DNA from: Flavobacteriales bacterium
Lineage (GTDB): Bacteria > Bacteroidota > Bacteroidia > Flavobacteriales > UBA7312
NCBI GenBank assembly: GCA_965661505.1
Contig: CBFIDX010000007.1
Location: 20 to 64,019, forward strand
Direction of reading: 5' to 3'
Length of the DNA: 64,000 nucleotides
Below, in pieces: positions 48,085-62,642 of this stretch; position 1 is the stretch's first letter; each line of letters opens with the position of its first letter. A program made the translations under genes and the position numbers. The notes under the pieces were generated by a model that was not told where the DNA came from, searched no databases, and worked only from the letters and a program-made list of their open reading frames with translations.

Positions 48085-48110
48085 AAATGAGGGTATATAT
48101 TATGACTAAA

Positions 48111-49256
48111 TTACAAGCCTAACTTTCCAAAAAACTTTATTATTCCTTTTATAAATTCGGTCGGCACATCGTTTATCATTGATGAAAAAGTTAATTGTTC
48201 ATTGACACCTACTGCGATTGCAATTGAAATTAAAAGGCCAATTAAGGCAAAAGAGAAGTCTTTTATGGCTAATTTAAAAGCAACTTTGACAGAATTATCA
48301 CCTGCTTTCCTCAATGACATTGCTAATTCTCGCCCTCCCAATAAGCCAATAAATACCCAAGTAGTACTCATAGGAACTTGCGAATAAAGTTTAAAATAGA
48401 AAAGGATAATACAATAAATAAAATCAATTACGGTCGCAAAGCGAACATCCGTTACAACTGATTTTTCGGTTACAATCTTTTGTATTCTACCTCCTTTGTA
48501 ATAAAGCAGTAATCCGAGTCCAATAAAAATAACTAATGCAAAACCTAAAAACTCTTCTAGTGCCATGCTTCTAGGAAGGTAAACAGCAATGTTAGCGGCA
48601 TCCTGCATCAGCCAAACAGACCACAAGGTACCTGAAGTTAACCATTGAGCTATGGTCCATCCAAAAGAAGCTTTATTTTTGAACTTTTTTCTCATCCATT
48701 TAGATACCATTATAAAGATGAAGAAACCGAGAATAAATGCCAATAAATACCCACTCATACTTTTAGCAAGCACTTTCCCTACAGCAGCTGGTGCAGATGC
48801 AAACGATGTGAGTAAGATAAATGTTGTAGAAACCGGCATCCGGAGTCTCGTCAGTATCAGTAGAAATATGGGGGCAGCGATTTGAAGAAAATGAAACTCA
48901 GTTGGAGATTTTTCAAAGCCTTTTGCCATTAGCCGACCGTGACTTACATCACCAGAAAAATTGAGCCAAGAATAAGTTACTGTTGCAAGAAAAATTCCTC
49001 CAATAAATATCCAAAGCACCCACCATTTTTTATTTTGATTTGAGGCAATGAAAGTCCCTAATGTTTGTATACTATCATTGGCAACAGCTGCATAAGCTGC
49101 AAAAATAAAGCCAACCCACATCCCTAACTGAGGATATGGAGTCGCAAACATGGCTATGATAAACGCAATTACGACAAAAGATAAGAATGTCCTTTCGTCT
49201 TTGTGAACCCATAGACTTGTAGGATATCCAAATTTACGAGTAAACTTCTTGAACAT
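48111..49256 (-). CDS. Divergent PiT/PHO4-like membrane transporter (putative phosphate permease)
   Basis: About 10 hydrophobic helices; duplicated motifs VANDSIQ/MPVSTT and QDAAN/VPMSTT resembling PiT GAND and PVSTT signatures; Pho context. Confidence 0.65.
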   Translation of the reverse strand: MFKKFTRKFGYPTSLWVHKDERTFLSFVVIAFIIAMFATPYPQLGMWVGFIFAAYAAVANDSIQTLGTFIASNQNKKWWVLWIFIGGIFLATVTYSWLNFSGDVSHGRLMAKGFEKSPTEFHFLQIAAPIFLLILTRLRMPVSTTFILLTSFASAPAAVGKVLAKSMSGYLLAFILGFFIFIMVSKWMRKKFKNKASFGWTIAQWLTSGTLWSVWLMQDAANIAVYLPRSMALEEFLGFALVIFIGLGLLLYYKGGRIQKIVTEKSVVTDVRFATVIDFIYCIILFYFKLYSQVPMSTTWVFIGLLGGRELAMSLRKAGDNSVKVAFKLAIKDFSFALIGLLISIAIAVGVNEQLTFSSMINDVPTEFIKGIIKFFGKLGL

Positions 49257-49264
49257 GAATAAAC

Positions 49265-49348
49265 TTATCCGAGATAAATAGCTAGGGCATAAACAGCAAT
49301 CATAATTGCTGAGTATAAAATTTTACTGATATCAAATTTTGTCTCCAA
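49265..49348 (-). CDS. Unannotated 27-aa membrane peptide (METKFDISKILYSAIMIAVYALAIYLG)
   Basis: TTG at 49348-49346 to TAA at 49267-49265, read by hand; lies between TATATTTG promoter and the PiT-like start; one TM helix. Confidence 0.5.
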   Translation of the reverse strand: METKFDISKILYSAIMIAVYALAIYLG

Positions 49349-49365
49349 AACGAAAATGTTTTATG

Positions 49366-49373
49366 CAAATATA
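49366..49373 (-). promoter_or_regulatory. -7 promoter element (TATATTTG) for sORF and PiT-like gene
   Basis: Plus strand CAAATATA. Confidence 0.65.
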
Positions 49374-49404
49374 CTAGTACACTGATTTTAAATCTCCGTT
49401 TTCA

Positions 49405-49422
49405 ATGTTAAGAAAACGTTAA
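49405..49422 (-). promoter_or_regulatory. Candidate Pho box TTAACGT-N4-TTAACAT
   Basis: 11-bp-period direct repeat 31 nt upstream of the -7 element. Confidence 0.55.
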
Positions 49423-49465
49423 ATCCAAAATACGAAAGTCATTTGTATAAGATTTCAAATAGTTT

Positions 49466-52318
49466 CTATTTAAAATTATGAGTCCATTTGAAAGAGAAGA
49501 ATCTTCCAGGTTTATAAGAACGATAAATTAAAGGATCGACACCGTAAGACTGGGTTAATAGTTCTTTGTCTTGATCCAATATATTCTTCACATTGAATGT
49601 AAATTTTGTTTCATCGCTGTAATTATACGTAAAGTTAATGTTTACACTATGAAACGGTGAAGTGTATATGTCAGGAATTTTATTCATACTTACAACTGTT
49701 AAAGTTGGACCCTGAACATTATAAAAAATACCAGCCTCCATGTCTAGATCTTCATATTTATAGCTTAATCCCGTATTTACAAGAAATGGAGCCTGACCTT
49801 GCATTTCTCTTACAATGGTAGCGTTTTCCGCATTCTCCAGCCATCTTGTTTCTAAGATTTCTCCTTCTCGTAAATTTGTTTGCCTAGCAATTAATTCTTC
49901 ATCAATAATTTCGACTTCAGATTTAATAACGGATGTGTTCAAGTTTAAAAATAAGTTTTCCGAAAGAAATGAAAGATTAGATCTGGCTTCAAGTTCCAAC
50001 CCAAAAATGCGGGCATCTCCTGTATTTCTTGGTTGTATATTGTCAGGATCTGATGAAAAAGCCGTCATTTCAATGGGGTTATACAAGGCTTTGTAAAAGC
50101 TGCTTAACGAAAATGTTTGATTTCCGCTTCCGAAATACTCATAACGCATGTCATAATTATAAATATTTGATGCAATAAGGTCTAGATTTCCGATGAAAGT
50201 AATGCCTGATAAAACATCAAGTATTTGGGCATTCGATTTTTCTTTAAAAGAAGGGCGTGCTGTAGTTCTAAAAAAAGTACCTCTTAAGTTCGATGATTTA
50301 TTTAGCGTATATATCAAGCCTAAAGAGGGGAAAATGTCAATATTTGATAACACATTTTCGTTATCATATTTGACACCAGATTGATTTTCGCCAGTATACA
50401 ATTGATCGTATTTTTCTATTCTAATACCTGCAATTGACTTTAATTGATCATTTAACTGAAATTCTTCAGAAAAATAGGCGCCTATATTTGATTGAATTCC
50501 AGTATACGCATTTGATGGTTGGTATTCTCCTTTGATGTAAAAACCAGACTCTGTATTAATATCGTACAATTGACTGCTTAGTAATTCATTCGGATCTCCT
50601 GTAAGGTTTGATGCTGCAGTAACATTTTGAGGATTTATCAAATAACGTAAAATTTCATAATCTCGATATTTAAATGTGTAGTTTAAACCATATTTCATTT
50701 TAGCATCAAAATTAAACAAGGTATGTTCTTTAATAAGTTCAATTTTAGATGCGATATTATATTCATTAAGATTTCTCCACATCCTTGAAGGTGTACCGGC
50801 ATTTGAAACATCAATTGTAAATTCATTGTCGTTTACTTCATATGCGGATTCACGAATATCCTTATCTCTTATCATTGAGTAGGTAGGTGAAATTTTCCAT
50901 ATTAATTCAATTTCACCATTTTTATAATTATGATTACCTTCAAGGAGTAAATTTGATATTGATCGTTGAGTATATTCTAAGTTTTCTTTTTTTATGGTAT
51001 TAAAATTACTTTCATAATTATTTTCTATGAAGAATCCAGCTTTTGATTCTCCATTTTGAAGGTGTAAAAGGTTAAGTTTGATTTTTGATTTACTAGTCTT
51101 TAGTGCCGCACCTGCCATTGCGCTTATCAGCACTTCGTTTTTTCCAATTTCACCTGTTTGTTCTTTGTTTGTTACCAAATTTATCTGGGTGATATCATCG
51201 TTTTTTTCAAATTCATTTTGTTGAACGTTTTCATAAAAGCTTGTGGTATTTTTGTAGGATAAGGCCCCACTGTAGCCCAGCTTATTGTCTCCAATGCTTT
51301 TTTGATTGCCCCCGGATATTCCAAAGCTGCCGTCAATAAATCTGTTTTTTCTTACTGTTGCTAATTCTGAGTTGAATCTTTTTGTTGCATCCATGACAAG
51401 CTCTTCATCACTTAAACGGATATCAACAATATTATCTAAAAGCGTTGGTTCTATCGGTAAATCTCTATTCCCATCATCGAAAGCTAAAAAATCAGTACTG
51501 CTCCCGTTGTAGGATAGAAAATTGTCATTTGGATTGTTAAAGTTATAATGGATTTCTGTGTTATAACTTAAACCTGCAGAGACTTTAAGTTGAGGTGTCT
51601 CAGGAAATGATTTAGTACTTATGTCTACCACGCCACCAGTAAAATCTCCTGGAAGATCTGCTGTAAATGTTTTCTTGACAATTATATTGTCAATTATGTT
51701 CGTTGGAAAAATATCGAGTTGAAGAGAGTTGCGATCTGGGTCTAGTCCTGGAATGTCTAGTCCATTAAACATTGTTTTGGTGTATCTATCGCCGAGTCCT
51801 CTTACATAAACATATTTACCTCCTTCTACTGAAACTCCGGGGACTCTGGTTACGGCAACAGCGGCATCTCCATCGCCCATTTTTTTAAAACTTTGAGCTG
51901 AAATCCCATCAATTACATTAACAGATTTTTTCTTAAATGTAAGGATTGCAGTTTCAGAATTTTTAACAGCTTCAGCTGTTATTGTTACCGTTTCTACATT
52001 TACTGCTGATGATTTTAAGCGAATGTTTCCAAGAGATGTAACTTTATTAGCTTCTACGTTTACATCCGTTACACGGGCTGTATTATAGCCAATGAATGAG
52101 GCAATTATAGTATAGTTTCCAGCTTCAACAGAAAGTTCAAAGTTTCCGTCAAAGTCTGCTGACGCACCGATCGTTGTTCCTTCAATACCCGCATTTGCAG
52201 CAAACATCGGTTCGGCATTTTCATCATCAATAATGCAACCCCTAATAATACCGCTTTGAGCGATAGTAAGATTTGAAATGAATAAACAAACACAAAAAAT
52301 AAAAATTCTTAAAGTCAT
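49466..52318 (-). CDS. TonB-dependent receptor
   Basis: RVPGVSVEGGKYVYVRGLGDRY, LQLDIFP, KTFTADLPGDFTGG plug, TARPSFKE, KNILD; start at MTLRIF downstream of a hairpin. Confidence 0.92.
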   Translation of the reverse strand: MTLRIFIFCVCLFISNLTIAQSGIIRGCIIDDENAEPMFAANAGIEGTTIGASADFDGNFELSVEAGNYTIIASFIGYNTARVTDVNVEANKVTSLGNIRLKSSAVNVETVTITAEAVKNSETAILTFKKKSVNVIDGISAQSFKKMGDGDAAVAVTRVPGVSVEGGKYVYVRGLGDRYTKTMFNGLDIPGLDPDRNSLQLDIFPTNIIDNIIVKKTFTADLPGDFTGGVVDISTKSFPETPQLKVSAGLSYNTEIHYNFNNPNDNFLSYNGSSTDFLAFDDGNRDLPIEPTLLDNIVDIRLSDEELVMDATKRFNSELATVRKNRFIDGSFGISGGNQKSIGDNKLGYSGALSYKNTTSFYENVQQNEFEKNDDITQINLVTNKEQTGEIGKNEVLISAMAGAALKTSKSKIKLNLLHLQNGESKAGFFIENNYESNFNTIKKENLEYTQRSISNLLLEGNHNYKNGEIELIWKISPTYSMIRDKDIRESAYEVNDNEFTIDVSNAGTPSRMWRNLNEYNIASKIELIKEHTLFNFDAKMKYGLNYTFKYRDYEILRYLINPQNVTAASNLTGDPNELLSSQLYDINTESGFYIKGEYQPSNAYTGIQSNIGAYFSEEFQLNDQLKSIAGIRIEKYDQLYTGENQSGVKYDNENVLSNIDIFPSLGLIYTLNKSSNLRGTFFRTTARPSFKEKSNAQILDVLSGITFIGNLDLIASNIYNYDMRYEYFGSGNQTFSLSSFYKALYNPIEMTAFSSDPDNIQPRNTGDARIFGLELEARSNLSFLSENLFLNLNTSVIKSEVEIIDEELIARQTNLREGEILETRWLENAENATIVREMQGQAPFLVNTGLSYKYEDLDMEAGIFYNVQGPTLTVVSMNKIPDIYTSPFHSVNINFTYNYSDETKFTFNVKNILDQDKELLTQSYGVDPLIYRSYKPGRFFSFKWTHNFK

Positions 52319-52332
52319 CTTAATTTCAATTA

Positions 52333-52371
52333 AAAAACTCATCAAAACTATAGAAGTTTTGATGAGTTTTT
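52333..52371 (-). terminator. Intra-operon hairpin/terminator between lipoprotein and TonB receptor
   Basis: Perfect 17-bp inverted repeat AAAAACTCATCAAAACT-ATAGA-AGTTTTGATGAGTTTTT. Confidence 0.8.
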
Positions 52372-52404
52372 AAAATTTGTTATGAATATATATTAACAGT
52401 ACCT

Positions 52405-53619
52405 TTAGTAAGTTCCAGCAGTCCAGCCAGAGAACTCAGACGTATTTGCTCCGCCAGATGTTCCTAATGAAGCATTAAAGTTTGTACTGTTGCCTGTTTG
52501 ATCATCACAGATGTCAGCTACAGTAAGGTTACAAGCGTCACCCATTTCATTTGCAGCAGGTAGGTGTGTAACATTAAAGATGATATTTGAAAAAGTAAGG
52601 TTAGCAGTTGAGCTACCCCCGTCAATTTCAAAATCAGAACCGCAAGAGAAACTATGGAAATAAACATTACTCATGCTTCCCATCGCTTCTTTTCTAAAAT
52701 CTGCGTATTCTCCGTTAATTGATTCGTCGTCGTAGCCCATCATTGTTGCTCCATCAACAGTAAATAATCCATCCCACGACCCTTCAGGTCCATCAATTTC
52801 AAAGGCGTGATCAGATTCAGCATCAGCGATACCTACAATGTTAGTAATGGTTCCATTGTATGATTGATCGATATCAAAAGCGTCGTCACCTTGGCTGTGT
52901 ACAGCAAGATGAGAAGCATCTACACTACCACCAAAGAATTCAATACCATCATCAACATTTGCTACTACTTCAACGTGATGAATTTCAGTGCCAGAACCAA
53001 CACCACCTAAAGTAAGACCGTTGATTTCGTTTCCTTCACCTAAAAGTGTTCCACCATGACGAATTTGCACATACTTGAATACACCTGAGTTATCAGCATC
53101 ATTTGTTCCACCGTACAATCCATTTGTATCGTCAGCAGGAATTCCCTCAATTTGAACGGCTTCAGCATCAGCTGAAATACCAGCATTACCTAAGATTATA
53201 ACACCACCCCATAATCCTTTGTATGAAGGGTCTAGGTTTGCGAATCCTGGGTATGAGGAATGGTTTCTTGTGATTTCGTCTGCAGATGAAGTGAAGATAA
53301 TTGGTTCAGAGGCTGTTCCATTCGCAAATACTTTACCACCTCTGGCAACAATAAATGCGCAAGCATTAGCTTCTTGTCCCGCATTGGCTTTAATTACCGT
53401 TCCTGCTTCGATTGTTAACTCAACACCGCTAGGTACAACAACGCGTCCATCTAATGTGTACACATTATCAGAAGTCCATGTCGTGTTTTCTGTAATAACT
53501 CCTGAATATGTTGTTACAGGGGTTGGTACAATTGGATCATCGTCACCATCACTACCTCCGCAGGCTGCTAAAGAAAAGATAGCTAGAAATGCCGAAAGTT
53601 TTAAAATTGTCTTTTTCAT
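52405..53619 (-). CDS. Surface lipoprotein with beta-helix-like repeats (non-SusD partner of TonB receptor)
   Basis: Lipobox LAAC then acidic SDGDDD; LTIEAGT, PIIFTS, WGGVIILG, NEINGLTLGGVGSGT, DDGIEFFGG, DDAFDID. Confidence 0.8.
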   Translation of the reverse strand: MKKTILKLSAFLAIFSLAACGGSDGDDDPIVPTPVTTYSGVITENTTWTSDNVYTLDGRVVVPSGVELTIEAGTVIKANAGQEANACAFIVARGGKVFANGTASEPIIFTSSADEITRNHSSYPGFANLDPSYKGLWGGVIILGNAGISADAEAVQIEGIPADDTNGLYGGTNDADNSGVFKYVQIRHGGTLLGEGNEINGLTLGGVGSGTEIHHVEVVANVDDGIEFFGGSVDASHLAVHSQGDDAFDIDQSYNGTITNIVGIADAESDHAFEIDGPEGSWDGLFTVDGATMMGYDDESINGEYADFRKEAMGSMSNVYFHSFSCGSDFEIDGGSSTANLTFSNIIFNVTHLPAANEMGDACNLTVADICDDQTGNSTNFNASLGTSGGANTSEFSGWTAGTY

Positions 53620-53665
53620 TTTTTATAGATTGATTAGTTAGTTATGGTGCAAAAGAAGTGTACTA

Positions 53666-53727
53666 ATGTTAAAAAAGCGTGTTCAGTTGTTTAATTTTTT
53701 AAGAACTTAACATTAACTAAACGTTAA
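53666..53727 (-). promoter_or_regulatory. Phased candidate Pho-box half-sites upstream of the lipoprotein
   Basis: Plus strand ATGTTAA 53666, TGTTTAA 53688, ACATTAA 53710, ACGTTAA 53721 (offsets are multiples of 11). Confidence 0.4.
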
Positions 53728-54388
53728 GAGGCATTTTATACCCTACACCTTTTATTGTGTTGATGCAATTGTAACCTAGAACTTTTCGAATGCTATTGAT
53801 GTGAACATCTACTGTCCTTTCGGTAACAAAAATATTTTCACCCCAGACTTCTTTAAATATTTTCTTTCTTGAAAACACTGCTCCAGGGTTGGAAGCTAGT
53901 AATGAGAAAATCAAAAATTGTTTTTTTGATATGTTGTATTCTTTATTTTCTTTTTTTATTGTGTGTGAATTGAAATCGACAGTGTATTCTCCAATATTTA
54001 TAGAATCAACTTTTGAAGTTTTATTATCCTTGATTCTATTTAAAGCTTTGATTTTTTTGGTGAATATTTTTGGATGAATTGGCTTTGTTATATAGTCATT
54101 GCATCCTGCATCAAAAGCAGCTAGTTTAGTGTAATTTTCTGATCTAGCAGATAACATTATGATAATATTATCATTGTATCCTCGACGTCTTATTTCGAAG
54201 CAAGTTTCTACACCATCCATGCCAGGCATCATTATGTCAAGAACTACTACGTCAGGATTATATTCTTTGATTTTTGTAATAGCTTCTAAGCCATCTTTGG
54301 CGGTAATGACATTTATATTCTCCTCTCTTAGATTATAAGAGATAAACTCCCTAATATCAGGGTCGTCATCTGCAATTAAAACATTCAT
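53717..54388 (-). CDS. OmpR/PhoB-family response regulator (second, divergent copy)
   Basis: IADDD, LDIMMPGMDG, DYITKP, RTVDVHI..IRK, TIKGVGY. Confidence 0.92.
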   Translation of the reverse strand: MNVLIADDDPDIREFISYNLREENINVITAKDGLEAITKIKEYNPDVVVLDIMMPGMDGVETCFEIRRRGYNDNIIIMLSARSENYTKLAAFDAGCNDYITKPIHPKIFTKKIKALNRIKDNKTSKVDSINIGEYTVDFNSHTIKKENKEYNISKKQFLIFSLLASNPGAVFSRKKIFKEVWGENIFVTERTVDVHINSIRKVLGYNCINTIKGVGYKMPLNV

Positions 54389-54420
54389 CTGGTTAAATTT
54401 TTAACAAAAATAATTTGTGA

Positions 54421-54460
54421 ATGTTTGCTTTGTGTTAAATAGAAATAATTTTAATGTAAA
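54421..54460 (-). promoter_or_regulatory. Candidate Pho-box half-sites upstream of the second regulator
   Basis: Plus strand ATGTTTG 54421, GTGTTAA 54432, ATGTAAA 54454; -7 element TATTTTTG at 54405-54412. Confidence 0.4.
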
Positions 54461-54506
54461 TTTATGCTTGTTAAATCATTTTGGTAATTTCTTAGAATTT
54501 TGAAAT

Positions 54507-55463
54507 TTAAAATTGATAAGAAACATTAAGAAATAATGTTTCATTAGAGTATGATTCATTATCTTTTGTTGAGCTGCGATAAGTTAAAGCAGTTTTTATA
54601 CCTTCTGTAAGTTCTTTTTCAACACCAACAATAATGTAGGTGCCATCATGAGTTATATTCCAGTCATTTTCGGAAGTAATTTCGTCATACCTAGCCAAAA
54701 TAGAAATTTGTCTCTCAATTTGATAAGAAGCGTACAAAGAAGTTGATTTAATGGATTGATCTACAGTATTTTGACTGCCATTTTGCAAATTAAACTCAAA
54801 GCCAAGATTAAACTTACTATCTCCGTAAGAAATAGAGGCAGATGAAGTTTCTTCGTTTACATCTTTGTTTGAATATGTTGTTCTTGGAGAAACCTCTTGT
54901 TGAATTCTTAAGGAAAGATTTTCTGAGGCTACAAAAGTAATACCAATACCGCCAGTATTTTTTCCATCAATATTATTTGTAAAACGTACCCCTTCTCCAT
55001 TTAAAACATGTAAATCAAGACTTAAATTTGAATTAATAGAGTAACAAATTTCTGCCCCCAAATCGACAATAGGTATCCAATCATTTTTACCCATTATTGA
55101 CGGATCTATGTATCTAAATCCCCAACTTTTATCTAAAAACTTATAGTGAGTAGACTTGAACTGGCCAAATTTGAAAGCAAATTTATCATTGATATTCCAA
55201 TTTATATTTGCCTCTCTTACTACTGTTGATAAATTATTTCCATTGATTACAGGTGTTGCATTCAAAATTATTGTCGAAAAAAAATGATCGTTGAAAACAT
55301 GTTTTGTTCCGATAAAAACACGATTAAATTTAAACGATTTTGTTAAAGTTTTTTCATTAGATAGGTCTGTGCTAACATGTGAAAAAACTTGTCCGTTTAA
55401 AGTGTTTTGAGCAACTGCCGAAAAAATCGAGAAAACAAATAATATAGTTAAAGTAAATTGCAT
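54507..55463 (-). CDS. Outer-membrane porin (phosphate-selective porin-like)
   Basis: Signal peptide, FNRVFIG, FGQF, DLG, NGEG, ARYD, C-terminal YQF. Confidence 0.65.
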   Translation of the reverse strand: MQFTLTILFVFSIFSAVAQNTLNGQVFSHVSTDLSNEKTLTKSFKFNRVFIGTKHVFNDHFFSTIILNATPVINGNNLSTVVREANINWNINDKFAFKFGQFKSTHYKFLDKSWGFRYIDPSIMGKNDWIPIVDLGAEICYSINSNLSLDLHVLNGEGVRFTNNIDGKNTGGIGITFVASENLSLRIQQEVSPRTTYSNKDVNEETSSASISYGDSKFNLGFEFNLQNGSQNTVDQSIKSTSLYASYQIERQISILARYDEITSENDWNITHDGTYIIVGVEKELTEGIKTALTYRSSTKDNESYSNETLFLNVSYQF

Positions 55464-55512
55464 GATTTTTTTTGCTAATATAATTTATATTTGTCAAGAT
55501 ATTTATTGTAGT

Positions 55513-56184
55513 ATGAGTGTTAAGGTTTTAGTTGTTGATGATGAACAAGACATTTTAGAGTTTGTTAAATATAATCTTGACAAAGAAGGTTATAATGTTA
55601 AAACAGCTTTTAATGGTGTAGATGCTATTGAAGAAGCAAAGAAATTTGTTCCTGATTTAGTCATTCTTGATGTAATGATGCCTGGCATGGATGGAATAAC
55701 CACTTGTGAAAAACTTAAATCAATTGATAAATTATCTGAAACTATTATCACATTCTTAACAGCACGCTCAGAAGACTATTCGCAGATTGCTGGGTTAGAT
55801 TCTGGAGCAGATGACTACATTACCAAACCCATTAGACCTCGATTATTGCTAAGCCGCGTAAAGGCATTGTTAAGAAGGAAATCAGACAATCAAAGTTTAA
55901 GTGTTATCGAGGTTGGTGATATAGTTCTTGATGTCGAAAAGCATACCGTAAAGTACAAGAATGATTTCGTTTCACTTGCAAAAAAAGAGTTTATGTTATT
56001 ACAGCTTTTACTTTCTAGACCGGGAAAGGTGTTTGCAAGACAAGAAATATTAAATGACGTTTGGGGTACTGATGTAATTGTTGGAGATAGAACGATTGAT
56101 GTACACATAAGAAAGCTAAGATCTAAAATAAATGATAACTATTTCAAAACAGTAAAAGGGGTAGGATATAAATTCGAATGTTAA
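55513..56184 (+). CDS. phoB: PhoB/PhoP-like response regulator
   Basis: VVDDE, LDVMMP, FLTARSEDYSQIAG, DDYITKP, VGDRTIDVHIRKLR; TATATTTG promoter at 55486-55493; adjacent PhoR-like kinase. Confidence 0.8.
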   Translation: MSVKVLVVDDEQDILEFVKYNLDKEGYNVKTAFNGVDAIEEAKKFVPDLVILDVMMPGMDGITTCEKLKSIDKLSETIITFLTARSEDYSQIAGLDSGADDYITKPIRPRLLLSRVKALLRRKSDNQSLSVIEVGDIVLDVEKHTVKYKNDFVSLAKKEFMLLQLLLSRPGKVFARQEILNDVWGTDVIVGDRTIDVHIRKLRSKINDNYFKTVKGVGYKFEC

Positions 56185-57212
56185 TGAAGTTTACTACTCC
56201 AAAATCAATTTCTCTTTTTACTTCTTTATTACTAGCAACTATAGTTACCACTTTTTTTTCATTATCAAATCTTCTTCTTGATAAATTCGATTTGCTTCAA
56301 TCATTTTTGATTTTTGTAATAACAGTTCTTTTTGGAAGGATTGTTTTAAGCATAGTTTTGAGGAAGTTTATATATGATAAAGTAAAGGTTGTTTACAAAA
56401 CAATCCTTAGCCAAAAAGGATCCTCTGATAACATCATTCCTGATTTAGAAAAAGTTAATAATGATGTATACGAAGCATTAACGAATAGACAGACGGAATT
56501 TGAGGAGTTAAAAAAAATGGAATCGTTCAGGCGTGAGTTTGTTGGAAATGTCTCTCATGAGTTAAAAACACCAATTTTTAATATGCAAGGATTTATATAT
56601 ACCCTACTTGACGGTGCTATTTATGATGAGGAAGTAAATATAAAGTATCTCAAAAGAGCTGCAAAATCTATTGATAGAATGATTTCTATTGTGGACGATC
56701 TAGATGTAATTAGTAAAATTGAGGCTAACCAACATAGTATTGAGCTCACAGATTGGGATATTGTTGCATTGCTTGAAGAAATAATTGAGCAACTTGAAAT
56801 GAAGAGTAAGCAAAAAAACATTATAATTGAGATAAAAGAAGGCTTTACCTCTTCTTCAGTATTTGCAGACAGAGATCATATTCATCACGTAGTTACAAAT
56901 CTTTTAGTAAACTCGATTAAATATGGTAAGGAGGGAGGAGTCACAGAAGTTCGATTGTTTCATATGGGCGATAATTTTCTCATTGAAATTGCAGATAATG
57001 GCATAGGTATTGCTCAAGAACATTTGTCAAGATTATTTGAACGATTTTATAGAGTCGATAAATCTAGATCTAGAGGACAAGGAGGAACCGGTTTAGGTTT
57101 GTCCATTGTTAAACATATCATAGAAAGCCATGGGCAAACTATTAACGTTAGAAGTACTGAAGGTGTCGGCACAACTTTTGGATTTACACTTGCAAAGTCA
57201 AAATTAAACTAA
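56184..57212 (+). CDS. phoR: PhoR-like sensor histidine kinase
   Basis: Two TM helices, EFVGNVSHELKTP, NSIKY, DNGIGI, FERFYRVDKSRSR, GGTGLGL. Confidence 0.8.
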   Translation: MKFTTPKSISLFTSLLLATIVTTFFSLSNLLLDKFDLLQSFLIFVITVLFGRIVLSIVLRKFIYDKVKVVYKTILSQKGSSDNIIPDLEKVNNDVYEALTNRQTEFEELKKMESFRREFVGNVSHELKTPIFNMQGFIYTLLDGAIYDEEVNIKYLKRAAKSIDRMISIVDDLDVISKIEANQHSIELTDWDIVALLEEIIEQLEMKSKQKNIIIEIKEGFTSSSVFADRDHIHHVVTNLLVNSIKYGKEGGVTEVRLFHMGDNFLIEIADNGIGIAQEHLSRLFERFYRVDKSRSRGQGGTGLGLSIVKHIIESHGQTINVRSTEGVGTTFGFTLAKSKLN

Positions 57213-57268
57213 CATTTTTCTGTTAATTCTTTTTCTGTGTAGAATGATTAAAATGGATTCTAATTGCT

Positions 57269-57709
57269 ATGTTTATCATAGTGAAAAATTATGATCGCAT
57301 ATCTGCTGGAGGCCTTGTTATCAATAATAACAATGAGTTTTTGCTTATTCAAAGAAAAGGAAAATGGGATTTGCCCAAAGGTAGATTAGAAACTAATGAG
57401 AATTTGTTAGAGACAGCAAAAAGAGAAATTTCAGAAGAAACAGGCTTAGAAGAAAAGTTTTTAAATCTAATAAGTAAGCTTGATCCTACTGTCTACACTA
57501 AAAAACAACAACTAAGACAAGCTAATTGGTTTCTTTTTCGATACGAGGATGCAAATGCGTATTTATTTCCACAGACTTCTGAAGGAATAACGATGTGTAA
57601 ATGGGTAAGTCAAGATTTAATTCCCTATTACTTTTCAAACATGAGAAATTATTCGAAAAAAGTACTCTTGGAATACAATCGATTATACACACAAAAGTTA
57701 GCTATATAG
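57269..57709 (+). CDS. NUDIX hydrolase
   Basis: WDLPKG..E..AKREISEETGL Nudix box. Confidence 0.88.
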   Translation: MFIIVKNYDRISAGGLVINNNNEFLLIQRKGKWDLPKGRLETNENLLETAKREISEETGLEEKFLNLISKLDPTVYTKKQQLRQANWFLFRYEDANAYLFPQTSEGITMCKWVSQDLIPYYFSNMRNYSKKVLLEYNRLYTQKLAI

Positions 57710-57840
57710 TTTTTGTATTTACCAAAGTTATAGTGTGGCATTTACCGAAAGATGATTATTGTTAAAAATCAAAACACAATCAAGATAGTTTTGTTGAAAT
57801 TCAAAAGCAATTAAAAACAACCTAAATGTGAAAAAACATG

Positions 57841-58821
57841 CTAAAGGGAATAAATTTTCTGCTTTATGATTTCTGAAATATTGTTGTCAAAGGAAATTTT
57901 AACTGGTTTACTTTTTAGCCAGTTGTAAATTTTTTGTTCTGAAAGTTCATTTAAATGATGAACACTACCTATCCCCATTTTTTCTAACGCTATTGCATTA
58001 CACAACTGCTCGTATTGACCATTCAAAGGGATGACTATTAATCGTTTACCTAAAAACAAAGCTTCTGAAGGTGTTTCAAAGCCGGCATTGCATATAACTC
58101 CTTTTGAAGAGCTCATGCTTTTTGTAAACATCTGTTCGTCAATTGGAAAAAAAGTAATGTTATTTCTCTTAGTCTTTGAGCCTACTTCTTTTGTAAAAAT
58201 GTGAAAATTTACATCTTTCACTTTATTAAATAAATAGCTTAAATCATCCAATTCATACCAAGGTAGATATATTGTAATGTGATCTCCTTCTACAATTACT
58301 GATTTTAAAATTGATTCTTTTATTATTGGACCCGAAATAGTATCATCATAATTGTTAAAATGAAGACCTATGTAGTGATCGGTTGGAGCAAAATATTTCA
58401 AAATCCATTCAGCAATTATATTCTTATTTTTTGGCCTTGGTGTTTTTGGACTTAAAAAAGATGCTTGGTGACTAATTTGAATAGACGGTATCTTATTTCT
58501 TTTTGCCCCGTAGGCTGACAGAGGATCGAAATCAGAAACTATTAAGTCATAACTTTTGAAAGGGATGCTTTTCATATTACTAAAAAAACGAAAAAGATTA
58601 ATGTTTCTCAGTGTTTTGGAATAGCTAATGCGACCATTTATAGTTTTAAAAGAAATCCCATCAGAAGCATATTTTACAGGAAAGCATGGCTGTAAGCTAT
58701 AGTTGTTTCCAGAGATCAAAACATCAACATCATTACTTACTTCCTTAAGAACCGGGTAGATTGTAGATGCTTTACTAATATGTCCATTTCCAGTGCCTTG
58801 AATACCATACAAGATCTTCAT
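57841..58821 (-). CDS. Glycosyltransferase (MJ1255/VC2487-like, GT-B fold)
   Basis: MKILYGIQGTGNGH, SDFDP, ISHQ, CNAGFETPSEAL, GQYEQLCNA. Confidence 0.85.
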   Translation of the reverse strand: MKILYGIQGTGNGHISKASTIYPVLKEVSNDVDVLISGNNYSLQPCFPVKYASDGISFKTINGRISYSKTLRNINLFRFFSNMKSIPFKSYDLIVSDFDPLSAYGAKRNKIPSIQISHQASFLSPKTPRPKNKNIIAEWILKYFAPTDHYIGLHFNNYDDTISGPIIKESILKSVIVEGDHITIYLPWYELDDLSYLFNKVKDVNFHIFTKEVGSKTKRNNITFFPIDEQMFTKSMSSSKGVICNAGFETPSEALFLGKRLIVIPLNGQYEQLCNAIALEKMGIGSVHHLNELSEQKIYNWLKSKPVKISFDNNISEIIKQKIYSL

Positions 58822-59630
58822 ATTATTTCGTTTTGAATGAAGCTGATATCAGCTTTGTTAAGGGTTGTTTCAACAATGAAGTCTTCAAAGTTTTTAGGGT
58901 CGTATTGAAAAATAGTCCATTTTTCATCATTATACTCTAATGCAGTTAAACTTTCAACCCAATCGCCAGAGTTTATGTATTTGACCTTTCCCTTTTTTGT
59001 TTGTATATCTTTAATGATGGGTTGATGAATATGTCCGCAAGCAACAATATCGTATTTGTTATCCACAGCCATTTCTGCTATTGTTGTCTCAAAGTCATCA
59101 ATAAACTGAACTGCTTTCTTTACACTTTTTTTGATTTTTTTTGAGAAAGAAACTCTATCTTTTCCTAAGAACTCAAGCAATTGGTTTATGATTCTATTTA
59201 ATACTATCAACAGGTCATACCCCTTTCCTCCGAGTTTAGCTAGCCATTTTGTTGTTTTCATTGTGAAGTCATATATATCTCCATGAAATATCCAGATTTT
59301 TTTTCCATTCACTTTCAAAACAAGTTTATTGACGATGTTTAAGTTACCCATATTAATGGGTATAAATTTTCTTAATAGTTCATCATGATTTCCTGATACA
59401 TAATGTACCTTGGTTTTTTTACTCGAAAATTCAATAATTTTCTTGAGAACTTTCATATGAGATTTTGGCCAGTAACGCTTTTTAAATTGCCAAATATCAA
59501 TAATGTCCCCATTGAGGACTAACACCTTGGGTTTGATAGAGTTTAAATATTTTAACAACTCTTCTGCATGACAACCGTATGTTCCAAGATGTACGTCAGA
59601 AATTATTACTAATTCTACTCTTCTTTTCAT
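58818..59630 (-). CDS. plcP: PlcP-like metallophosphoesterase (LpxH-like family)
   Basis: SDVHLG, GDIIDIW, GNHDE, HGD, CGHIH, NSGDWVES; coupled to a glycosyltransferase within a Pho cluster. Confidence 0.7.
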   Translation of the reverse strand: MKRRVELVIISDVHLGTYGCHAEELLKYLNSIKPKVLVLNGDIIDIWQFKKRYWPKSHMKVLKKIIEFSSKKTKVHYVSGNHDELLRKFIPINMGNLNIVNKLVLKVNGKKIWIFHGDIYDFTMKTTKWLAKLGGKGYDLLIVLNRIINQLLEFLGKDRVSFSKKIKKSVKKAVQFIDDFETTIAEMAVDNKYDIVACGHIHQPIIKDIQTKKGKVKYINSGDWVESLTALEYNDEKWTIFQYDPKNFEDFIVETTLNKADISFIQNEII

Positions 59631-59661
59631 ATCTGCAATTTGTTGTATGTTACTTAACTAA

Positions 59662-59690
59662 AAGTTTGTAAAATGCTAATTTTATGTTAC
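59662..59690 (-). promoter_or_regulatory. Candidate Pho box upstream of the plcP-like gene
   Basis: Plus strand AAGTTTG 59662, ATGCTAA 59673, ATGTTAC 59684 (11-bp period). Confidence 0.45.
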
Positions 59691-59716
59691 CTAATCCGTT
59701 AGATATTTTAAATACC

Positions 59717-59734
59717 ATAACATTATTTTAACAT
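59717..59734 (+). promoter_or_regulatory. Candidate Pho box ATAACAT-N4-TTAACAT upstream of ppk2
   Basis: 11-bp direct repeat 30 nt upstream of TATATTTG (59765-59772). Confidence 0.55.
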
Positions 59735-59776
59735 TTGATTTACTATAACATTCTAAGCTCAATATATATTTGTTTT

Positions 59777-60616
59777 ATGGAATTTATAAAATACTTAAAT
59801 AGTGATTACACTGAGCTGACAGACTCTATTTATAGAGAAGAGAAGTTTAGGCTTCAAATTGAACTACTGAAACTACAAGAATGGATTGAAAAAAATAATA
59901 AAAGAGTTGCTATTATCTTTGAAGGAAGAGATGCCGCTGGTAAAGGTTCTACTATTAAAAGATTTATTGAAAACTTGAATCCAAGGAAGCTTAGAGTATT
60001 TGAATTAGGAGTGCCAACAAAAAAACAGAATAGATCATGGTTTAAAACACATGAGAGGATTATGCCAAAAGCTGGTGAAATGGTATTTTTTGACCGGTCT
60101 TGGTATTCTAGAGCAATGATACAACCCACAATGGGTTATTGCACAAAAAATCAGTACGAATATTTTATGAAGAATGTAATTGACTGGGAAGAGGAATTAA
60201 TCCGAGATGGAACTCACATAATAAAAATTTACCTCTCTGTTCAGAAACCTGTACAAAAACTTCGCTTTAAAATAAGAAAAGAGCATAAGTTAAAATATTG
60301 GAAACTCTCAAAAAACGATCTAAAAACATTAGGAAAATGGGAAGAATACACTTATTACAAAAATAGAATGTTTGAATTTTGTTCTTCCGAAAAATCTCCT
60401 TGGATCATCATTAACTCAAACAATAAAATGATTGCTCGTTTAAATGCTATGCGTTATGTGCTGAGGCAATTCAGTTATGATGGTAAAATTGATTTAGAAA
60501 ATGAAAATTGGTCTGTAAACTACGATCAAAATGACTTAACTCTTTTTGGAGTTTACTTCGACAATCTTTCAGTTGAACAATACACATTACTTAATAAATT
60601 AAAGTCTTATGAATAA
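59777..60616 (+). CDS. ppk2: Polyphosphate kinase 2
   Basis: LQIELLKLQ, FEGRDAAGKG (Walker A), FDRSWY, WKLS..D. Confidence 0.9.
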   Translation: MEFIKYLNSDYTELTDSIYREEKFRLQIELLKLQEWIEKNNKRVAIIFEGRDAAGKGSTIKRFIENLNPRKLRVFELGVPTKKQNRSWFKTHERIMPKAGEMVFFDRSWYSRAMIQPTMGYCTKNQYEYFMKNVIDWEEELIRDGTHIIKIYLSVQKPVQKLRFKIRKEHKLKYWKLSKNDLKTLGKWEEYTYYKNRMFEFCSSEKSPWIIINSNNKMIARLNAMRYVLRQFSYDGKIDLENENWSVNYDQNDLTLFGVYFDNLSVEQYTLLNKLKSYE

Positions 60617-61040
60617 AATTCAATCTTGTGGTGGTCTTGTTGTTAATGAAAAGCATCAATTGCTTTTGATTTATAAAAAAAATAGATGGGACTTGCCAAA
60701 AGGAAAAAAAGAAAACTTTCAGTCTCATAAAGAGACCGCACTCAGAGAAGTTTCAGAAGAAACGGGTCTTAATGTAAATGGAATTGATCAACTCACTGAG
60801 TTAATTCCAACACATCACTATACAAGATGTGAAGGAAATAAGGTGTTAAAAGAAACGATTTGGTATTACATGAAATATAAGGGTGACAGTTTTAAGCTTA
60901 AGCCTCAAGAAGTAGAAGGCATTATTCATGCTAAATGGGTGCCAATATGGAAGCTCAATGAATACCTTCAGTACGCTCCTTTAAGAATACAATACATAGT
61001 AGACTTTTTTCTCAAGAATATATATTATCCTACAAAATGA
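60609..61040 (+). CDS. NUDIX hydrolase
   Basis: WDLPKG..E..ALREVSEETGL; PQEVEGI. Confidence 0.88.
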   Translation: MNKIQSCGGLVVNEKHQLLLIYKKNRWDLPKGKKENFQSHKETALREVSEETGLNVNGIDQLTELIPTHHYTRCEGNKVLKETIWYYMKYKGDSFKLKPQEVEGIIHAKWVPIWKLNEYLQYAPLRIQYIVDFFLKNIYYPTK

Positions 61041-62323
61041 AAAAGAAAATTTTTGTAATCGATACATCGGTAATTTTATACGACAATCAGTCTGTTTTTT
61101 CATTTGAAGAACACAGAATTGCTATACCAATAACGGTATTAGAAGAGCTTGACGGACTAAAGAAAGGGAATCAAAATAAAAATTTTCAGGCTCGCGAGTT
61201 TATTCGATTTTTAGATGGTTTTTCAAGCCAAAATTTGTCCTCAAGATGGCTGCCAATGAAACCTCTATCAAAAGGTAAAATCAAAATTGTATGTTTTAAT
61301 TCTCTTAAAAATTTGAATGATAATAAAATCATAGACATTACAATACAGCTCCAAAAAAAATATCCAAATGATGAAGTGGTCTTAGTATCAAAAGATATTA
61401 ATCAACGAGTTAAAGCGCGTGCGTTAAAAATTCGTTCGGAAGATTATAAAAAGGGTAAAGTAAGTAGAGATTTATATAAAGGCGTGAGAAAAGTAAAATG
61501 TTCTAACCCCAAATTGATTAACAATATCAATGCTCACGGTAAGGAAAGTAAATTTAAAAAAACAGTCAAGTCACCTCAAAATAATGAGTTTTTTCTCTTA
61601 GAATACAATAATCAATCTTCATTGGCTTATTATAACCCCTATAGTGGAGACTTACAAAAAGTTTCAAAGAAAACAGCAGTCGGAATTAAGCCAAGAAATG
61701 CAGGTCAAACATTTGCTATGCATGCTTTACTTAATGATTCAATAAAACTTGTTACGTTAGAGGGGCCTGCTGGAACAGGAAAAACCTTAATTGCTCTTGC
61801 AGCAGCACTTGAACAACAATCACAATTTGATAAAATTTTTGTTTCTAGACCTTTGGTGCCTTTAAATAATAAAGATATTGGTTATTTGCCAGGCAATGAA
61901 AAAGAAAAAATAAATCCTTATATGATGCCATTATGGGATAATCTTGACTTTATCAAAAGTAATTTTTCTGCTAAATCAAAAATGAATGCAAAACTTGATG
62001 ACATTGTTAAAAGTGAGAAAATCATGATTACCCCACTAGCATTTATTAGGGGGAGGAGTTTTGTAAATAAGCTCTTAATAATTGATGAAGCACAAAATTT
62101 AACCCCTCTTGAGGTTAAAACAATAATTACAAGGGCTGGAGAAAACACCAAAATAATACTGACAGGCGATAGAAAGCAAATAGACACTCCTTATCTTGAT
62201 GAGTTCAGCAACGGTTTAAGTCATTTAATCGATAGATTTAGGGGAGATAAACTATATGCTCATGTCCACCTAGAAAAAGGAGAGAGATCAATCTTAGCAA
62301 ATATGGCATTTGAAAGATTGTGA
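61037..62323 (+). CDS. PIN-PhoH (PhoH2/YlaK-type) ATPase
   Basis: PIN residues VIDTSV, LEELD, NDNKI, SKDINQR; GPAGTGKT, GYLPG, FIRGRSF, DEAQN, TRAG, GD..QID. Confidence 0.92.
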   Translation: MKKKIFVIDTSVILYDNQSVFSFEEHRIAIPITVLEELDGLKKGNQNKNFQAREFIRFLDGFSSQNLSSRWLPMKPLSKGKIKIVCFNSLKNLNDNKIIDITIQLQKKYPNDEVVLVSKDINQRVKARALKIRSEDYKKGKVSRDLYKGVRKVKCSNPKLINNINAHGKESKFKKTVKSPQNNEFFLLEYNNQSSLAYYNPYSGDLQKVSKKTAVGIKPRNAGQTFAMHALLNDSIKLVTLEGPAGTGKTLIALAAALEQQSQFDKIFVSRPLVPLNNKDIGYLPGNEKEKINPYMMPLWDNLDFIKSNFSAKSKMNAKLDDIVKSEKIMITPLAFIRGRSFVNKLLIIDEAQNLTPLEVKTIITRAGENTKIILTGDRKQIDTPYLDEFSNGLSHLIDRFRGDKLYAHVHLEKGERSILANMAFERL

Positions 62324-62324
62324 C

Positions 62325-62642
62325 CTAACGATCCATTTGATCATCCCTAGGAACTTTTACCTCAATTTTTGCATCAGGATAGCGACTGGACATAAAAATT
62401 GCAATCTTTTCAGTCATGCTATCATAAACTGCAGCGTATTGAATTAAACTAACCTCAACAATAAAGGATCCCCTGTTGTACTCATATTCCATTGGCCCCA
62501 TCTTAGCAACAGCGGTATTTTCATAGAAGACTTCATTCCCTCTCAAAGAGAATTTTTCAGACTCAGAACTAGAAAGTTTTGCGGGTGTACTACATGAAAA
62601 AAGTAAAAAGCCCACAATAAATGAAATAAATAGATTTCTCAT
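62325..62642 (-). CDS. Hypothetical lipoprotein
   Basis: Lipobox LFSC; 105 aa; no domain recognised. Confidence 0.65.
   Translation of the reverse strand: MRNLFISFIVGFLLFSCSTPAKLSSSESEKFSLRGNEVFYENTAVAKMGPMEYEYNRGSFIVEVSLIQYAAVYDSMTEKIAIFMSSRYPDAKIEVKVPRDDQMDR

Follow-up and report, generated by a model that had tools for sequence, protein, structure and literature searches.

Growth is limited by phosphate over much of the surface ocean, and flavobacteria are among the major degraders of organic matter that comes from blooms. This text describes a probable phosphate-starvation (Pho) locus at positions 48111-62323 of a 64-kb stretch of DNA, the window (bases 20-64019 of contig C7), from a marine Flavobacteriales bacterium. 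A closely similar system is the PhoBR/PUSIV locus of Flavobacterium johnsoniae (Fjoh_0541-0549), which holds a pf04101 glycosyltransferase (GT), OprP, PhoR, PhoB, a TonB-dependent transporter (TBDT) and a pectin-lyase-fold lipoprotein, FII (Lidbury et al. 2021, PMC8115612). On depletion of inorganic phosphate (Pi), this TBDT and FII are induced by a log2 of 8-10. The lipoproteins FI, FII and FIII, all with a pectin-lyase fold, adjoin Pi-depletion-induced TonB transporters. In the same study pstS was found in 26 of 102 surveyed Flavobacteriaceae genomes (mostly Flavobacterium), and Bacteroidota without Pst that carry PhoBR-OprP-TBDT-lipoprotein clusters were already described (PMC8115612).

Other described systems resemble parts of the locus. 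The flexible phosphate genomic island (fGIp) of the marine order HIMB59 occurs in versions at one position, and all eight contain pstSCAB-phoU (Molina-Pardines et al. 2023, PMC10734472). The transporter-lid pair BT4055/BT4056 is related to ElpS of Caulobacter and is adjacent in 621 genera (10.1101/2023.03.17.533168); ElpS is also treated in PMC2996285. Marine heterotrophs have plcP-glycosyltransferase operons with Pho boxes, which are commoner in low-phosphorus seas (Sebastian et al. 2016, PMC4796936).

The region is best read as the Pho locus of a streamlined bacterium with a 1.65-Mb genome. Its backbone of glycosyltransferase, PhoR and PhoB, between trmB on one side and a LuxE-like gene and tyrS on the other, would be old and fixed in position. 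The slot beside phoB would be a recombination hot spot, in which transporter modules are swapped between lineages. In place of pstSCAB-phoU, the version found here would combine an OprP-like porin with two modules. The first is an orphan PhoB paralogue with a beta-helix lipoprotein and a TonB-dependent receptor, which would capture a phosphorus-bearing substrate at the outer membrane. The second is an operon of a 27-residue membrane peptide and a divergent PiT-fold permease, which would import Pi across the inner membrane. A 5.1-kb block would add phosphorus sparing and storage through a PlcP-like enzyme with a glycolipid glycosyltransferase, PPK2, two NUDIX hydrolases and PIN-PhoH2. As a whole, the reading of an old Pho locus with a swappable slot, here in a Pst-free version with an inserted block, is considered likely.

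The features of the region are as follows, with coordinates counted along the window and the strand in brackets.

48065..48084 (-): hairpin like an intrinsic terminator, with a 7-bp stem of which 5 pairs are G-C and a T run, directly 3' of the permease gene
48111..49256 (-): PiTl, a divergent PiT-fold permease of 381 amino acids (aa), named from a structure model and a weak PHO4 match
49265..49348 (-): small open reading frame (mini-ORF) for a 27-aa single-helix peptide, TTG start inferred, recognised by conservation of the peptide in relatives
49406..49422 (-): direct repeat TTAACG-N5-TTAACA, resembling a Pho box, upstream of the operon of mini-ORF and permease
49466..52345 (-): TonB-dependent receptor of 959 aa, TTG start uncertain, with Plug, CarbopepD_reg_2 and barrel
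52330..52374 (no strand): 20-nt inverted repeat, 95% complementary with a 5-nt loop, between the lipoprotein and receptor genes
52405..53619 (-): beta-helix surface lipoprotein of 404 aa, from its lipobox and a structure model
53717..54388 (-): RR2, an orphan OmpR/PhoB-type response regulator, 45% identical to PhoB
54507..55463 (-): OprP/O-like outer-membrane porin (Porin_O_P), 24.1 bits in Pfam against a cut-off of 20.9
55462..56184 (+): PhoB-type response regulator, start probably at 55513 (MSVKVLVVDD)
56178..57212 (+): PhoR-type histidine kinase with two transmembrane (TM) helices, a short loop and no PAS domain
57269..57709 (+): NUDIX hydrolase 1, first gene of the 5.1-kb block
57841..58821 (-): glycosyltransferase of the MJ1255/VC2487 type (GT28-like), overlapping the upstream phosphoesterase gene by 4 nt
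58818..59630 (-): PlcP-like metallophosphoesterase, with Metallophos domains (Pfam)
59717..59744 (+): Pho-box-like repeats in tandem, ATAACA-N5-TTAACA-N5-TTTACT, within the promoter region of the divergent PlcP and PPK2 genes
59735..60616 (+): PPK2, a single-domain polyphosphate kinase 2, start probably the ATG at 59777
60609..61040 (+): NUDIX hydrolase 2, about 40% identical to NUDIX 1
61037..62323 (+): PIN-PhoH2, a PIN RNase with a PhoH ATPase (Pfam/NCBIfam)
62325..62642 (-): lipoprotein of 105 aa with no assigned family; in genome G008 it lies directly between phoR and GT2
62668..63711 (-): GT2, a GT28-like glycosyltransferase of the conserved flank, adjoining phoR in 17 of 17 family loci

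A first-pass annotation of this DNA had described 13 contiguous genes, most of them fitting phosphorus economy. The genes are present at 48111-62323 as described, and Pfam and NCBIfam scans bear out their families, at least 11 of which are phosphate-related. The "small ORF" that it added could be either 62325-62642 or the mini-ORF at 49265-49348. The genome is a 53-contig draft with a completeness of 99.75% and a GC (guanine plus cytosine) fraction of about 0.369.

The evidence for an old backbone and a variable slot comes from relatives. The syntenic region was taken from 17 genomes of the same family, and the proteins of the window, together with the pst genes of one relative, were mapped onto each; the pst genes of the relatives were confirmed over NCBIfam cut-offs. 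All 17 have trmB-GT2-PhoR-PhoB on one side and LuxE-like-GNAT(-carbonic-anhydrase-like-tyrS) on the other. The comparison between the LuxE-like gene and trmB, which the first-pass annotation had proposed, reveals differing gene content, with eight versions of the phoB-LuxE slot in 18 family genomes. In the following list, G000 is the genome of the window, G001 a congener and G008 a member of another genus.

empty slot: G006
porin: G009
PiTl: G005, G018
porin and PiTl: G013, G012, G019
porin and pstSCAB-phoU: G001, G017
porin, pstSCAB-phoU and PiTl: G016, G007, G004, G011
235-aa lipoprotein, beta-helix lipoprotein, receptor and PiTl: G008
porin, RR2, lipoprotein, receptor and PiTl: G000

In the congener the order is GT2/PhoRB/porin/pstSCAB-phoU/LuxE, so that pst stands where G000 has RR2-lipoprotein-receptor-permease. 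The gene for the 105-aa lipoprotein follows directly after phoR in G008.

The backbone extends well beyond the family. Among the best 80 Bacteroidota loci with a homologue of the lipoprotein, the arrangement trmB/GT2-PhoR-PhoB-lipoprotein-receptor-LuxE/tyrS is found, whole or in part, in Psychroflexus, Maribacter, Allomuricauda, Polaribacter, Salegentibacter and Schleiferiaceae. It is an old arrangement, with its position conserved across several Flavobacteriales genera. Therefore the supposed island amounts to a conserved Pho locus in which one slot is flexible and one block has been inserted. The description "self-contained island" has to be given up, since the backbone is old and fixed in place and just the slot contents and the 5.1-kb block are flexible. 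The related proposal of swapping by recombination is supported, in that gene content at this position varies between close relatives without mobile marks and the conflict between trees of island genes and of flanks fits replacement.

Two side observations concern these flanks. A 9.9-kb contig labelled "MAG: Methanobacteriota archaeon" (L045) carries trmB, GT2, the 105-aa lipoprotein gene, PhoR, PhoB, the lipoprotein (84%), the receptor and PiTl (82%); this flavobacterial contig was almost certainly misbinned into an archaeal metagenome-assembled genome (MAG). At 46157-46579 (-), a 140-aa protein that is kept in the flank of all relatives scores 79 bits (cut-off 350) against the C-terminal two thirds of a "metal-independent carbonic anhydrase" model.

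Versions at the same position differ in phosphorus-themed gene sets and, with a caveat about long branches, do not follow phylogeny. In maximum-likelihood trees of the flank genes, G000 groups with its congener G001 (100/100 for the LuxE-like gene, 100/100 for GT2 and 100/99 for GNAT). In the trees of PhoR and PhoB it groups with G008, apart from the other 11 (100/100 and 99/98). The PhoB and PhoR trees thus conflict with those of the flanks, which argues that alleles were exchanged between lineages. Protein identities show a similar split. Between G000 and G001 they are 75-93% in the flanks, 70% for PhoB, 54% for PhoR and 38% for the porin. Between G000 and G008 they are 57-63% in the flanks, 86% for the lipoprotein, 72% for both the receptor and PhoB, 69% for the 105-aa lipoprotein and 64% for PhoR. 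Low GC is common to phoBR and the receptor gene of G008, and is not found in the other versions.

An alternative model is vertical inheritance without recombination. In this model, the differences between versions arose by differential loss and by fast, AT-biased divergence of a non-essential region. It agrees with the backbone, and even the lipoprotein-receptor pair, standing at the same place in distant genera. It also agrees with the lack of mobile-element marks and of any alternative joint in metagenome contigs. Furthermore, G008 lies on long branches (0.67 for PhoR and 0.53 for PhoB), and long-branch attraction could inflate the conflict of both trees. Part of the signal could thus be artefact, but the gene content that G000 and G008 share argues otherwise. 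Vertical inheritance also leaves unexplained why PhoR and PhoB group with a different genus when three flank genes group with the congener at 99 or more. The island proteins are 64-86% identical to those of G008, as against 57-63% in the flanks, and 38-70% identical to those of the congener, as against 75-93%. Moreover, modules of the locus occur at other genomic places in relatives. Vertical inheritance is accordingly judged unlikely, and exchange of slot contents and alleles remains the preferred model.

The other flexible part is the block behind phoR. It consists of NUDIX, GT-PlcP, PPK2, NUDIX and PIN-PhoH2, and fills 5.1 kb between phoR and the 105-aa lipoprotein gene. Only G000 has it at that position; it is absent there from 17 of 17 relatives' loci. 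Its parts are known from other places. NUDIX-PPK2-PlcP-GT forms a four-gene unit among housekeeping genes in G005 and G014, 8 of 40 relatives have a PlcP orthologue (56-73% identity), and full-length PIN-PhoH2 occurs in one of 20 family relatives (G014, 69%).

The Pfam and NCBIfam libraries hold no PlcP model, and the label was set by domain, paralogue and context. The metallophosphoesterase is distinct from LpxH, of which a separate paralogue lies on contig C13; its gene has the 4-nt overlap with that of the GT, and the Pho-box-like motif is at 59717-59744. The enzyme is probably a phospholipase C for lipid remodelling, and the GT at 57841-58821 is probably a glycolipid synthase. PPK2 matches PF03976 with 229.1 bits (cut-off 22.3). 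Its listed start, the TTG at 59735, lies inside the Pho-box-like array, and the in-frame ATG at 59777 fits relatives and motifs better. Similarly, the listed ATG of phoB at 55462 overlaps the start codon of the porin, and the in-frame ATG at 55513 fits relatives better. Both listed starts are probably wrong.

Composition sets part of the region apart. The stretch 53717-62642 has a GC of 0.31 against a genome mean of 0.368, and a lower GC is found in about 1.1-1.5% of 1418 5-kb windows. Only one region of the genome is AT-richer; it lies at about 43-56 kb of contig C4, outside the window, and has 5-kb windows with a GC of 0.286-0.307, below the Pho locus. The profiling called for in the first-pass annotation therefore makes 53.7-62.6 kb stand out both in GC (lowest 1.3% or so) and in tetranucleotides, with a distance in the top 2-4% of genome windows. 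The stretch 48111-53619, in contrast, is ordinary (GC 0.353, 25th percentile of genome windows). Thus the impression that the region is AT-richer than its flanks holds for 53.7-62.6 kb and not for 48.1-53.6 kb, and the low-GC part does not coincide with the boundaries 48111-62323.

Classical signs of an integrative island are lacking at the locus. There is no tRNA gene in the window that could serve as a target, no integrase among its ORFs (Pfam and NCBIfam), and no att-like flanking direct repeat was found around the locus, in agreement with the first-pass annotation on the last two. A scan of 46-64 kb against Rfam gave no match at E<=0.1. A sigma-70 promoter scan gave 71 sites against 67.6 expected, which is uninformative since Bacteroidota promoters differ. 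The hairpin at 48065..48084, ahead of the LuxE-like gene, is the predicted left end of the Pho unit.

Near-identical DNA is present in marine metagenomes. Of the words sampled from 53701-63700, 73% or more are present in each of sixteen DNA runs from eight studies; one of these runs may be the source of the assembly. Contigs from two other studies, at about 99.5% identity, cover 52931-64000 and 47439-51026 (X2) and 55615-59697 and 59764-64000 (X7). They reproduce the junctions LuxE/PiTl, lipoprotein-RR2-porin-phoBR, phoR/NUDIX and PhoH2-lipoprotein/GT2. Apparent island-skipping joints in contigs have sides of just 22-36 nt at 90% likeness and were taken as other organisms. In one metatranscriptome library, contigs match the genes for the receptor, lipoprotein, porin, PlcP, PPK2 and NUDIX2/PhoH2 at 98-100% identity. 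None was found there for tyrS-GNAT or for 61.5-64 kb including GT2, although lack of RNA cover does not equal silence. On the preferred reading, the genes of the locus would be co-induced under phosphorus limitation.

A direct repeat links several of these genes. The motif TTAACA-N5-TTAACA was counted at no more than one mismatch, unless stated otherwise, with shuffled sequences as controls. Its 11-bp period is that expected of a PhoB-type operator, as in the Pho boxes of E. coli. All three matches in the 64-kb window lie inside the island: before the mini-ORF, within phoB and in the PlcP/PPK2 tandem array. In relatives, phoBR adjoins pstSCAB-phoU with the motif upstream of pstS. It precedes pstS in 10 of 10 relatives' loci (shuffle mean 0.08, maximum 1) and PiTl in 13 of 14 (mean 0.21, maximum 3). 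Across diverse Bacteroidota it lies upstream of the lipoprotein gene at 23 of 72 loci (mean 0.6, maximum 2), and at two mismatches or fewer the count rises to 53 of 72, where shuffles average 8.1. TTAACA-N5-TTAACA is therefore a candidate Bacteroidota Pho box, to which PhoB would bind. No published Bacteroidetes Pho box was met in a limited literature search, which cannot show absence from print. As a predictor of the Pho regulon across the genome at one mismatch, the motif was rejected, since its count equals chance and its neighbours are unrelated.

In the outer-membrane module, the sequence of the lipoprotein has a lipobox (...LAAC|GGSDG), and its structure model, with a pLDDT (predicted local distance difference test) of 85, is a right-handed parallel beta-helix as judged by VIA. 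In the wide VIA comparison 139 chains have Z>=8; tailspikes, alginate epimerases, NosD and polygalacturonases reach Z 20-22.7, and the top 50 matches listed are all beta-helix proteins (best Z 22.7). Foldseek returned no hit for the model at E<=0.001, so that the fold rests on VIA. No family is over cut-off in Pfam or NCBIfam scans, and the protein carries a precomputed assignment to PF28492, as a bare label.

Homologues of the lipoprotein were confirmed for 605 of at least 630 matched stretches, and gene neighbourhoods were counted in the best 80 Bacteroidota loci. The receptor gene follows directly on the same strand in 75 of the 80. Within 7 kb of the lipoprotein gene, a PhoB-like gene is found in 26 and PhoR in 16. 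The lipoprotein is a probable lid or binding partner of the receptor. RR2-lipoprotein-receptor is a three-gene unit in G005, G011 and G014, and stands beside pstSCAB-phoU in G009. The inverted repeat at 52330-52374, which overlaps the listed TTG start of the receptor, could be an attenuator that sets the ratio of lipoprotein to receptor.

It might be argued that this module takes up glycans or another nutrient, and stands at the Pho locus by chance. The beta-helix is the fold of pectate and alginate lyases, polygalacturonases and tailspikes. In addition, the repeat is not found at one mismatch upstream of RR2 or of the lipoprotein gene in G000 (the best sites have two mismatches), none of four RR2 modules in relatives has it, and those modules sit among housekeeping genes. 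Set against this are the 23 of 72 Bacteroidota loci with the motif before the lipoprotein gene, where 0.6 would be expected, the PhoB-like gene nearby in 26 of 80 loci, and the module beside pstSCAB-phoU in G009. Likewise, the F. johnsoniae counterparts are among the genes most strongly induced by Pi depletion (PMC8115612), and ElpS of Caulobacter, a member of the family, is Pho-regulated (10.1101/2023.03.17.533168). A role outside phosphorus uptake is rather improbable, and capture of a phosphorus-bearing substrate is preferred.

The permease at the other end of the slot is a divergent member of a known fold. Against Pfam PHO4 (PF01384), PiTl scores 14.8 bits where the gathering cut-off is 33.7 (E 0.014, in three stretches), and no Pfam or NCBIfam family is over cut-off. 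Its AlphaFold model, built from a 43-sequence alignment, has a pLDDT of 91.6. Foldseek gave one hit at E<=0.001, the Thermotoga sodium-dependent phosphate transporter TmPiT (6L85; probability 1.00, E 8.4e-4). VIA aligned 289 of 381 residues with the same structure at Z 21.6, a root-mean-square deviation of 3.8 and 17% identity, and the next best match has Z 7.5. Moderate support comes from hhalign against three PitA proteins of the canonical type, taken from larger relatives (79% probability, E 1.6e-5, 196 columns). The alignment pairs the PiTl motifs IPVSTTF, QDAANI and IPMSTTWVF with IPSSSSH, GNDSQKV and IPVSTTHTI of PitA. On the strength of the model, PiTl is a true, divergent PiT-fold protein, and the earlier label "PiT-like" is borne out in spite of the score below the Pfam cut-off.

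Homologues of PiTl number more than 7800, most of them without a name or called "hypothetical protein", with 803 representative clusters at 50% identity. It adjoins phoU-pstBACS or phoBR in every family locus. From this context, and because no other Pi transporter was found, PiTl is probably an inner-membrane phosphate importer, and probably the only one of the cell. A separate observation is that PiTl is near-invariant among ten relatives of three genera (L010-L023), with tree branches of 0.006-0.15 where flank proteins differ by 35-40%; the copy in G000 is an outlier with a branch of 0.22. Either very strong constraint or recent horizontal spread would account for the near-invariance.

The mini-ORF ends 8 nt ahead of the permease ATG. 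Its peptide is hydrophobic and conserved across genera, with the motif D/E-I-S-K-x-L-Y..I-M..V-Y in 11 of 14 relatives' loci by pattern and in a twelfth (L018) by eye. The product may serve as an accessory subunit or act as a leader peptide.

The PiT-fold protein could instead move sulfate, another anion or a metal-phosphate complex, or act mainly as a sensor. Its distance from TmPiT and its sub-threshold Pfam score leave room for this, and the Atlas clusters nearest PiTl are auto-named "Phosphate/sulfate permease". Yet the permease is constantly beside phoU-pstBACS or phoBR, its upstream repeat is the same as that of pstS, it is the sole candidate Pi importer in five high-quality genomes, and its motifs align with those of canonical PitA. 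A substrate or role other than Pi import is quite unlikely.

The genome appears to lack the usual Pi transporters. The first-pass annotation had claimed that the locus is without pstSCAB-phoU, and indeed no subunit is encoded in 48111-62323. The genome-wide search that it suggested found none elsewhere either. PhoU (PF01895) and PstS-type PBP_like_2 have no match in the genome, the best ABC ATPase reaches 154.6 bits against a PstB cut-off (TIGR00972) of 343.2, and tblastn with the PstS, PstC, PstA and PhoU of relatives gave no hits. PHO4, the family of canonical PitA, has no match in a whole-genome profile search, Na_Pi_cotrans has just one 20-bit fragment, and PPK1 was not found in the genome. 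A Phosphodiest-family enzyme, of the kind to which PafA belongs, lies on contig C6 and an ordinary phoH on C3; therefore not every phosphorus gene of the genome is in the locus.

This genome is not alone in lacking Pst. Among 13 high-quality family genomes, five have the permease without PhoU (G000 and four others), five have both, two have Pst/PhoU only and one has neither. In the last the LuxE flank is missing too, so that the locus was probably not assembled. The idea of a Pst-independent Pho module thus gains from the genome-wide absence of Pst-PhoU, but loses the distinction of being particular to this organism. The phrases "absence of PstSCAB" and "Pst-independent" were not met among the papers listed in a limited literature search, which cannot show absence from print. 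That Pst-PhoU or another Pi transporter is present in the organism and missing from the draft is very improbable: the assembly is split into 53 contigs, G012, G006 and G009 have pst at a distance from the Pho locus, and variable islands often break MAG assemblies (the LuxE-like gene of G003 is at a contig edge and the G010 locus is missing), but completeness is 99.75%, five independent searches were without match, the four other high-quality genomes likewise have the permease and no PhoU, and assembly across the usual slot is complete both in this contig and in those from other studies.

Much of the two-component signalling of this genome is encoded in the locus. The whole genome has two HisKA kinases and three response regulators, of which one kinase (PhoR) and two regulators (PhoB and RR2) are found here. 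The best-scoring models are those of PhoB and PhoR for the regulators, and for the kinase PnpS is slightly higher. RR2 has no kinase gene of its own alongside. PhoR is its likeliest partner by elimination, since kinases are few in the genome, and would phosphorylate both PhoB and RR2. The porin beside them is a divergent allele, 34-38% identical to porins of relatives, and its match to PF07396 is marginal (24.1 versus 20.9 bits, over residues 31-103 alone).

In enterobacteria of the E. coli and Salmonella type, PhoU acts through the PAS domain of PhoR (PMC13577022). The PhoR of the window has HisKA and HATPase_c as its only Pfam domains, with about 57 residues from the second TM helix to HisKA. 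All 13 family PhoR proteins, from genomes with and without Pst, have two TM helices with a very short loop between them, a juxtamembrane segment that is conserved, and DHp and CA domains, and none of the 13 has room for a PAS domain.

A bolder model can be built on these features. The beta-helix lipoprotein and TonB receptor would capture a phosphorus compound, and the PiT-fold permease with its 27-aa partner would import Pi. The PAS-less, loop-less PhoR would then read supply from the permease or peptide, not from Pst-PhoU, and signal to PhoB and RR2, Pst having been given up in some streamlined marine Flavobacteriales. This transceptor model is speculative and, as a complete account, doubtful.

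Several further observations weigh against the overall reading. One group concerns family scores. In TIGR02154 (PhoB, cut-off 296.2 bits), PhoB has 232 bits and RR2 185.7; in TIGR02966, PhoR has 238.6 against 334.2 bits, over model positions 105-332 alone. All are below equivalog level. PPK2 is just under the cut-off of the class I equivalog TIGR03707 (281.6 versus 301.8 bits), and a profile of the permease family has no match at E<=10 among sequences of the PDB. A second group concerns the repeat. The counts at pstS and PiTl overstate the evidence, because the relatives are kin and not independent. Genome-wide, the motif is as frequent as in shuffles (33 versus 30-37). Ten of the 33 matches are intergenic (intergenic DNA is 8% of the genome), and the others outside the locus precede unrelated genes, six of them annotated: a TPR protein, FAD synthetase, an ATP synthase subunit, PurL, a protein secreted by the type IX secretion system (T9SS) and a Trp dioxygenase-like protein. 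The motif is also absent from all three NUDIX-PPK2-PlcP-GT modules of relatives. Finally, the contigs of three DNA runs show this version only, with no convincing case of a part of the island being skipped or replaced, although contigs drop rare variants. The RNA contigs are compatible with expression in the sea, as a matter of presence and not of induction or strand.

On the preferred reading, phosphorus acquisition within one small-genome marine family would be a swappable cassette at a fixed chromosomal address. Its versions span an empty slot, Pst alone, and up to a Pst-free set with receptor, permease, lipid-remodelling and polyphosphate genes. A large PiT-fold family, with the 803 representative clusters, lies outside the Pfam and NCBIfam models, and appears to supply the sole Pi importer in several genomes. 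These genomes form a natural strain set whose PhoR has to function with neither PstSCAB-PhoU nor a PAS domain, which bears on what PhoR senses. The candidate Pho box is a directly testable outcome.

The permease shares with PiT/PHO4 proteins such as TmPiT the fold, two-fold repeated motifs that can be aligned with canonical PitA, and linkage to Pho genes. It differs in scoring below the Pfam gathering cut-off, in its low identity (17%) and in not being covered by Pfam or NCBIfam models. In addition, a conserved gene for a 27-aa membrane peptide and a Pho-box-like repeat stand before it; E. coli pitA is not known to be Pho-induced.

The lipoprotein and receptor resemble BT4055/BT4056 and ElpS, in which a non-SusC TonB transporter stands beside a pectin-lyase-fold surface lipoprotein, with Pho-regulated members. 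The lipobox, a pectin-lyase-type beta-helix and the adjoining TonB transporter gene are all found here, and putative membership rests on fold, lipobox and context. With the plcP-agt operons of marine heterotrophs, the block shares a metallophosphoesterase translationally coupled to a glycosyltransferase and a Pho-box-like site upstream. Unlike them, it has a GT of the MJ1255/VC2487 (GT28-like) type and is divergently joined to PPK2-NUDIX-PhoH2.

The likeness to F. johnsoniae is one of family, fold and arrangement. Both loci hold a GT28-type GT, an OprP-like porin, PhoR, PhoB, a CarbopepD_reg TonB transporter and a pectin-lyase-fold lipoprotein; both organisms are without PstSABC, and PlcP is part of the response. 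GT2 holds the position of Fjoh_0541, a Pi-induced glycosyltransferase (PMC8115612). The present locus differs in its 1.65-Mb marine genome, another gene order and the orphan second regulator. It also differs in the PiT-fold permease with the mini-ORF, the joined PlcP-GT, PPK2, two NUDIX hydrolases and PIN-PhoH2.

The HIMB59 fGIp is likewise found in a streamlined marine lineage, at a fixed position, without mobile-element marks and in versions that do not follow phylogeny. Its versions differ in genes for phosphorus acquisition and storage (phoBR, polyphosphate kinase, glycosyltransferase, LpxH-like). Unlike fGIp, several versions of the present slot are Pst-free, the phylum is another, and TonB receptor/lipoprotein modules and a PiT-fold permease take part. 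Similar islands are known from Prochlorococcus and SAR11. New here are an eight-version slot in a marine flavobacterial family, Pst-free versions included, an uncatalogued PiT-fold permease family with a leader peptide, a candidate Bacteroidota Pho box, and the concentration of the genome's two-component signalling in the locus.

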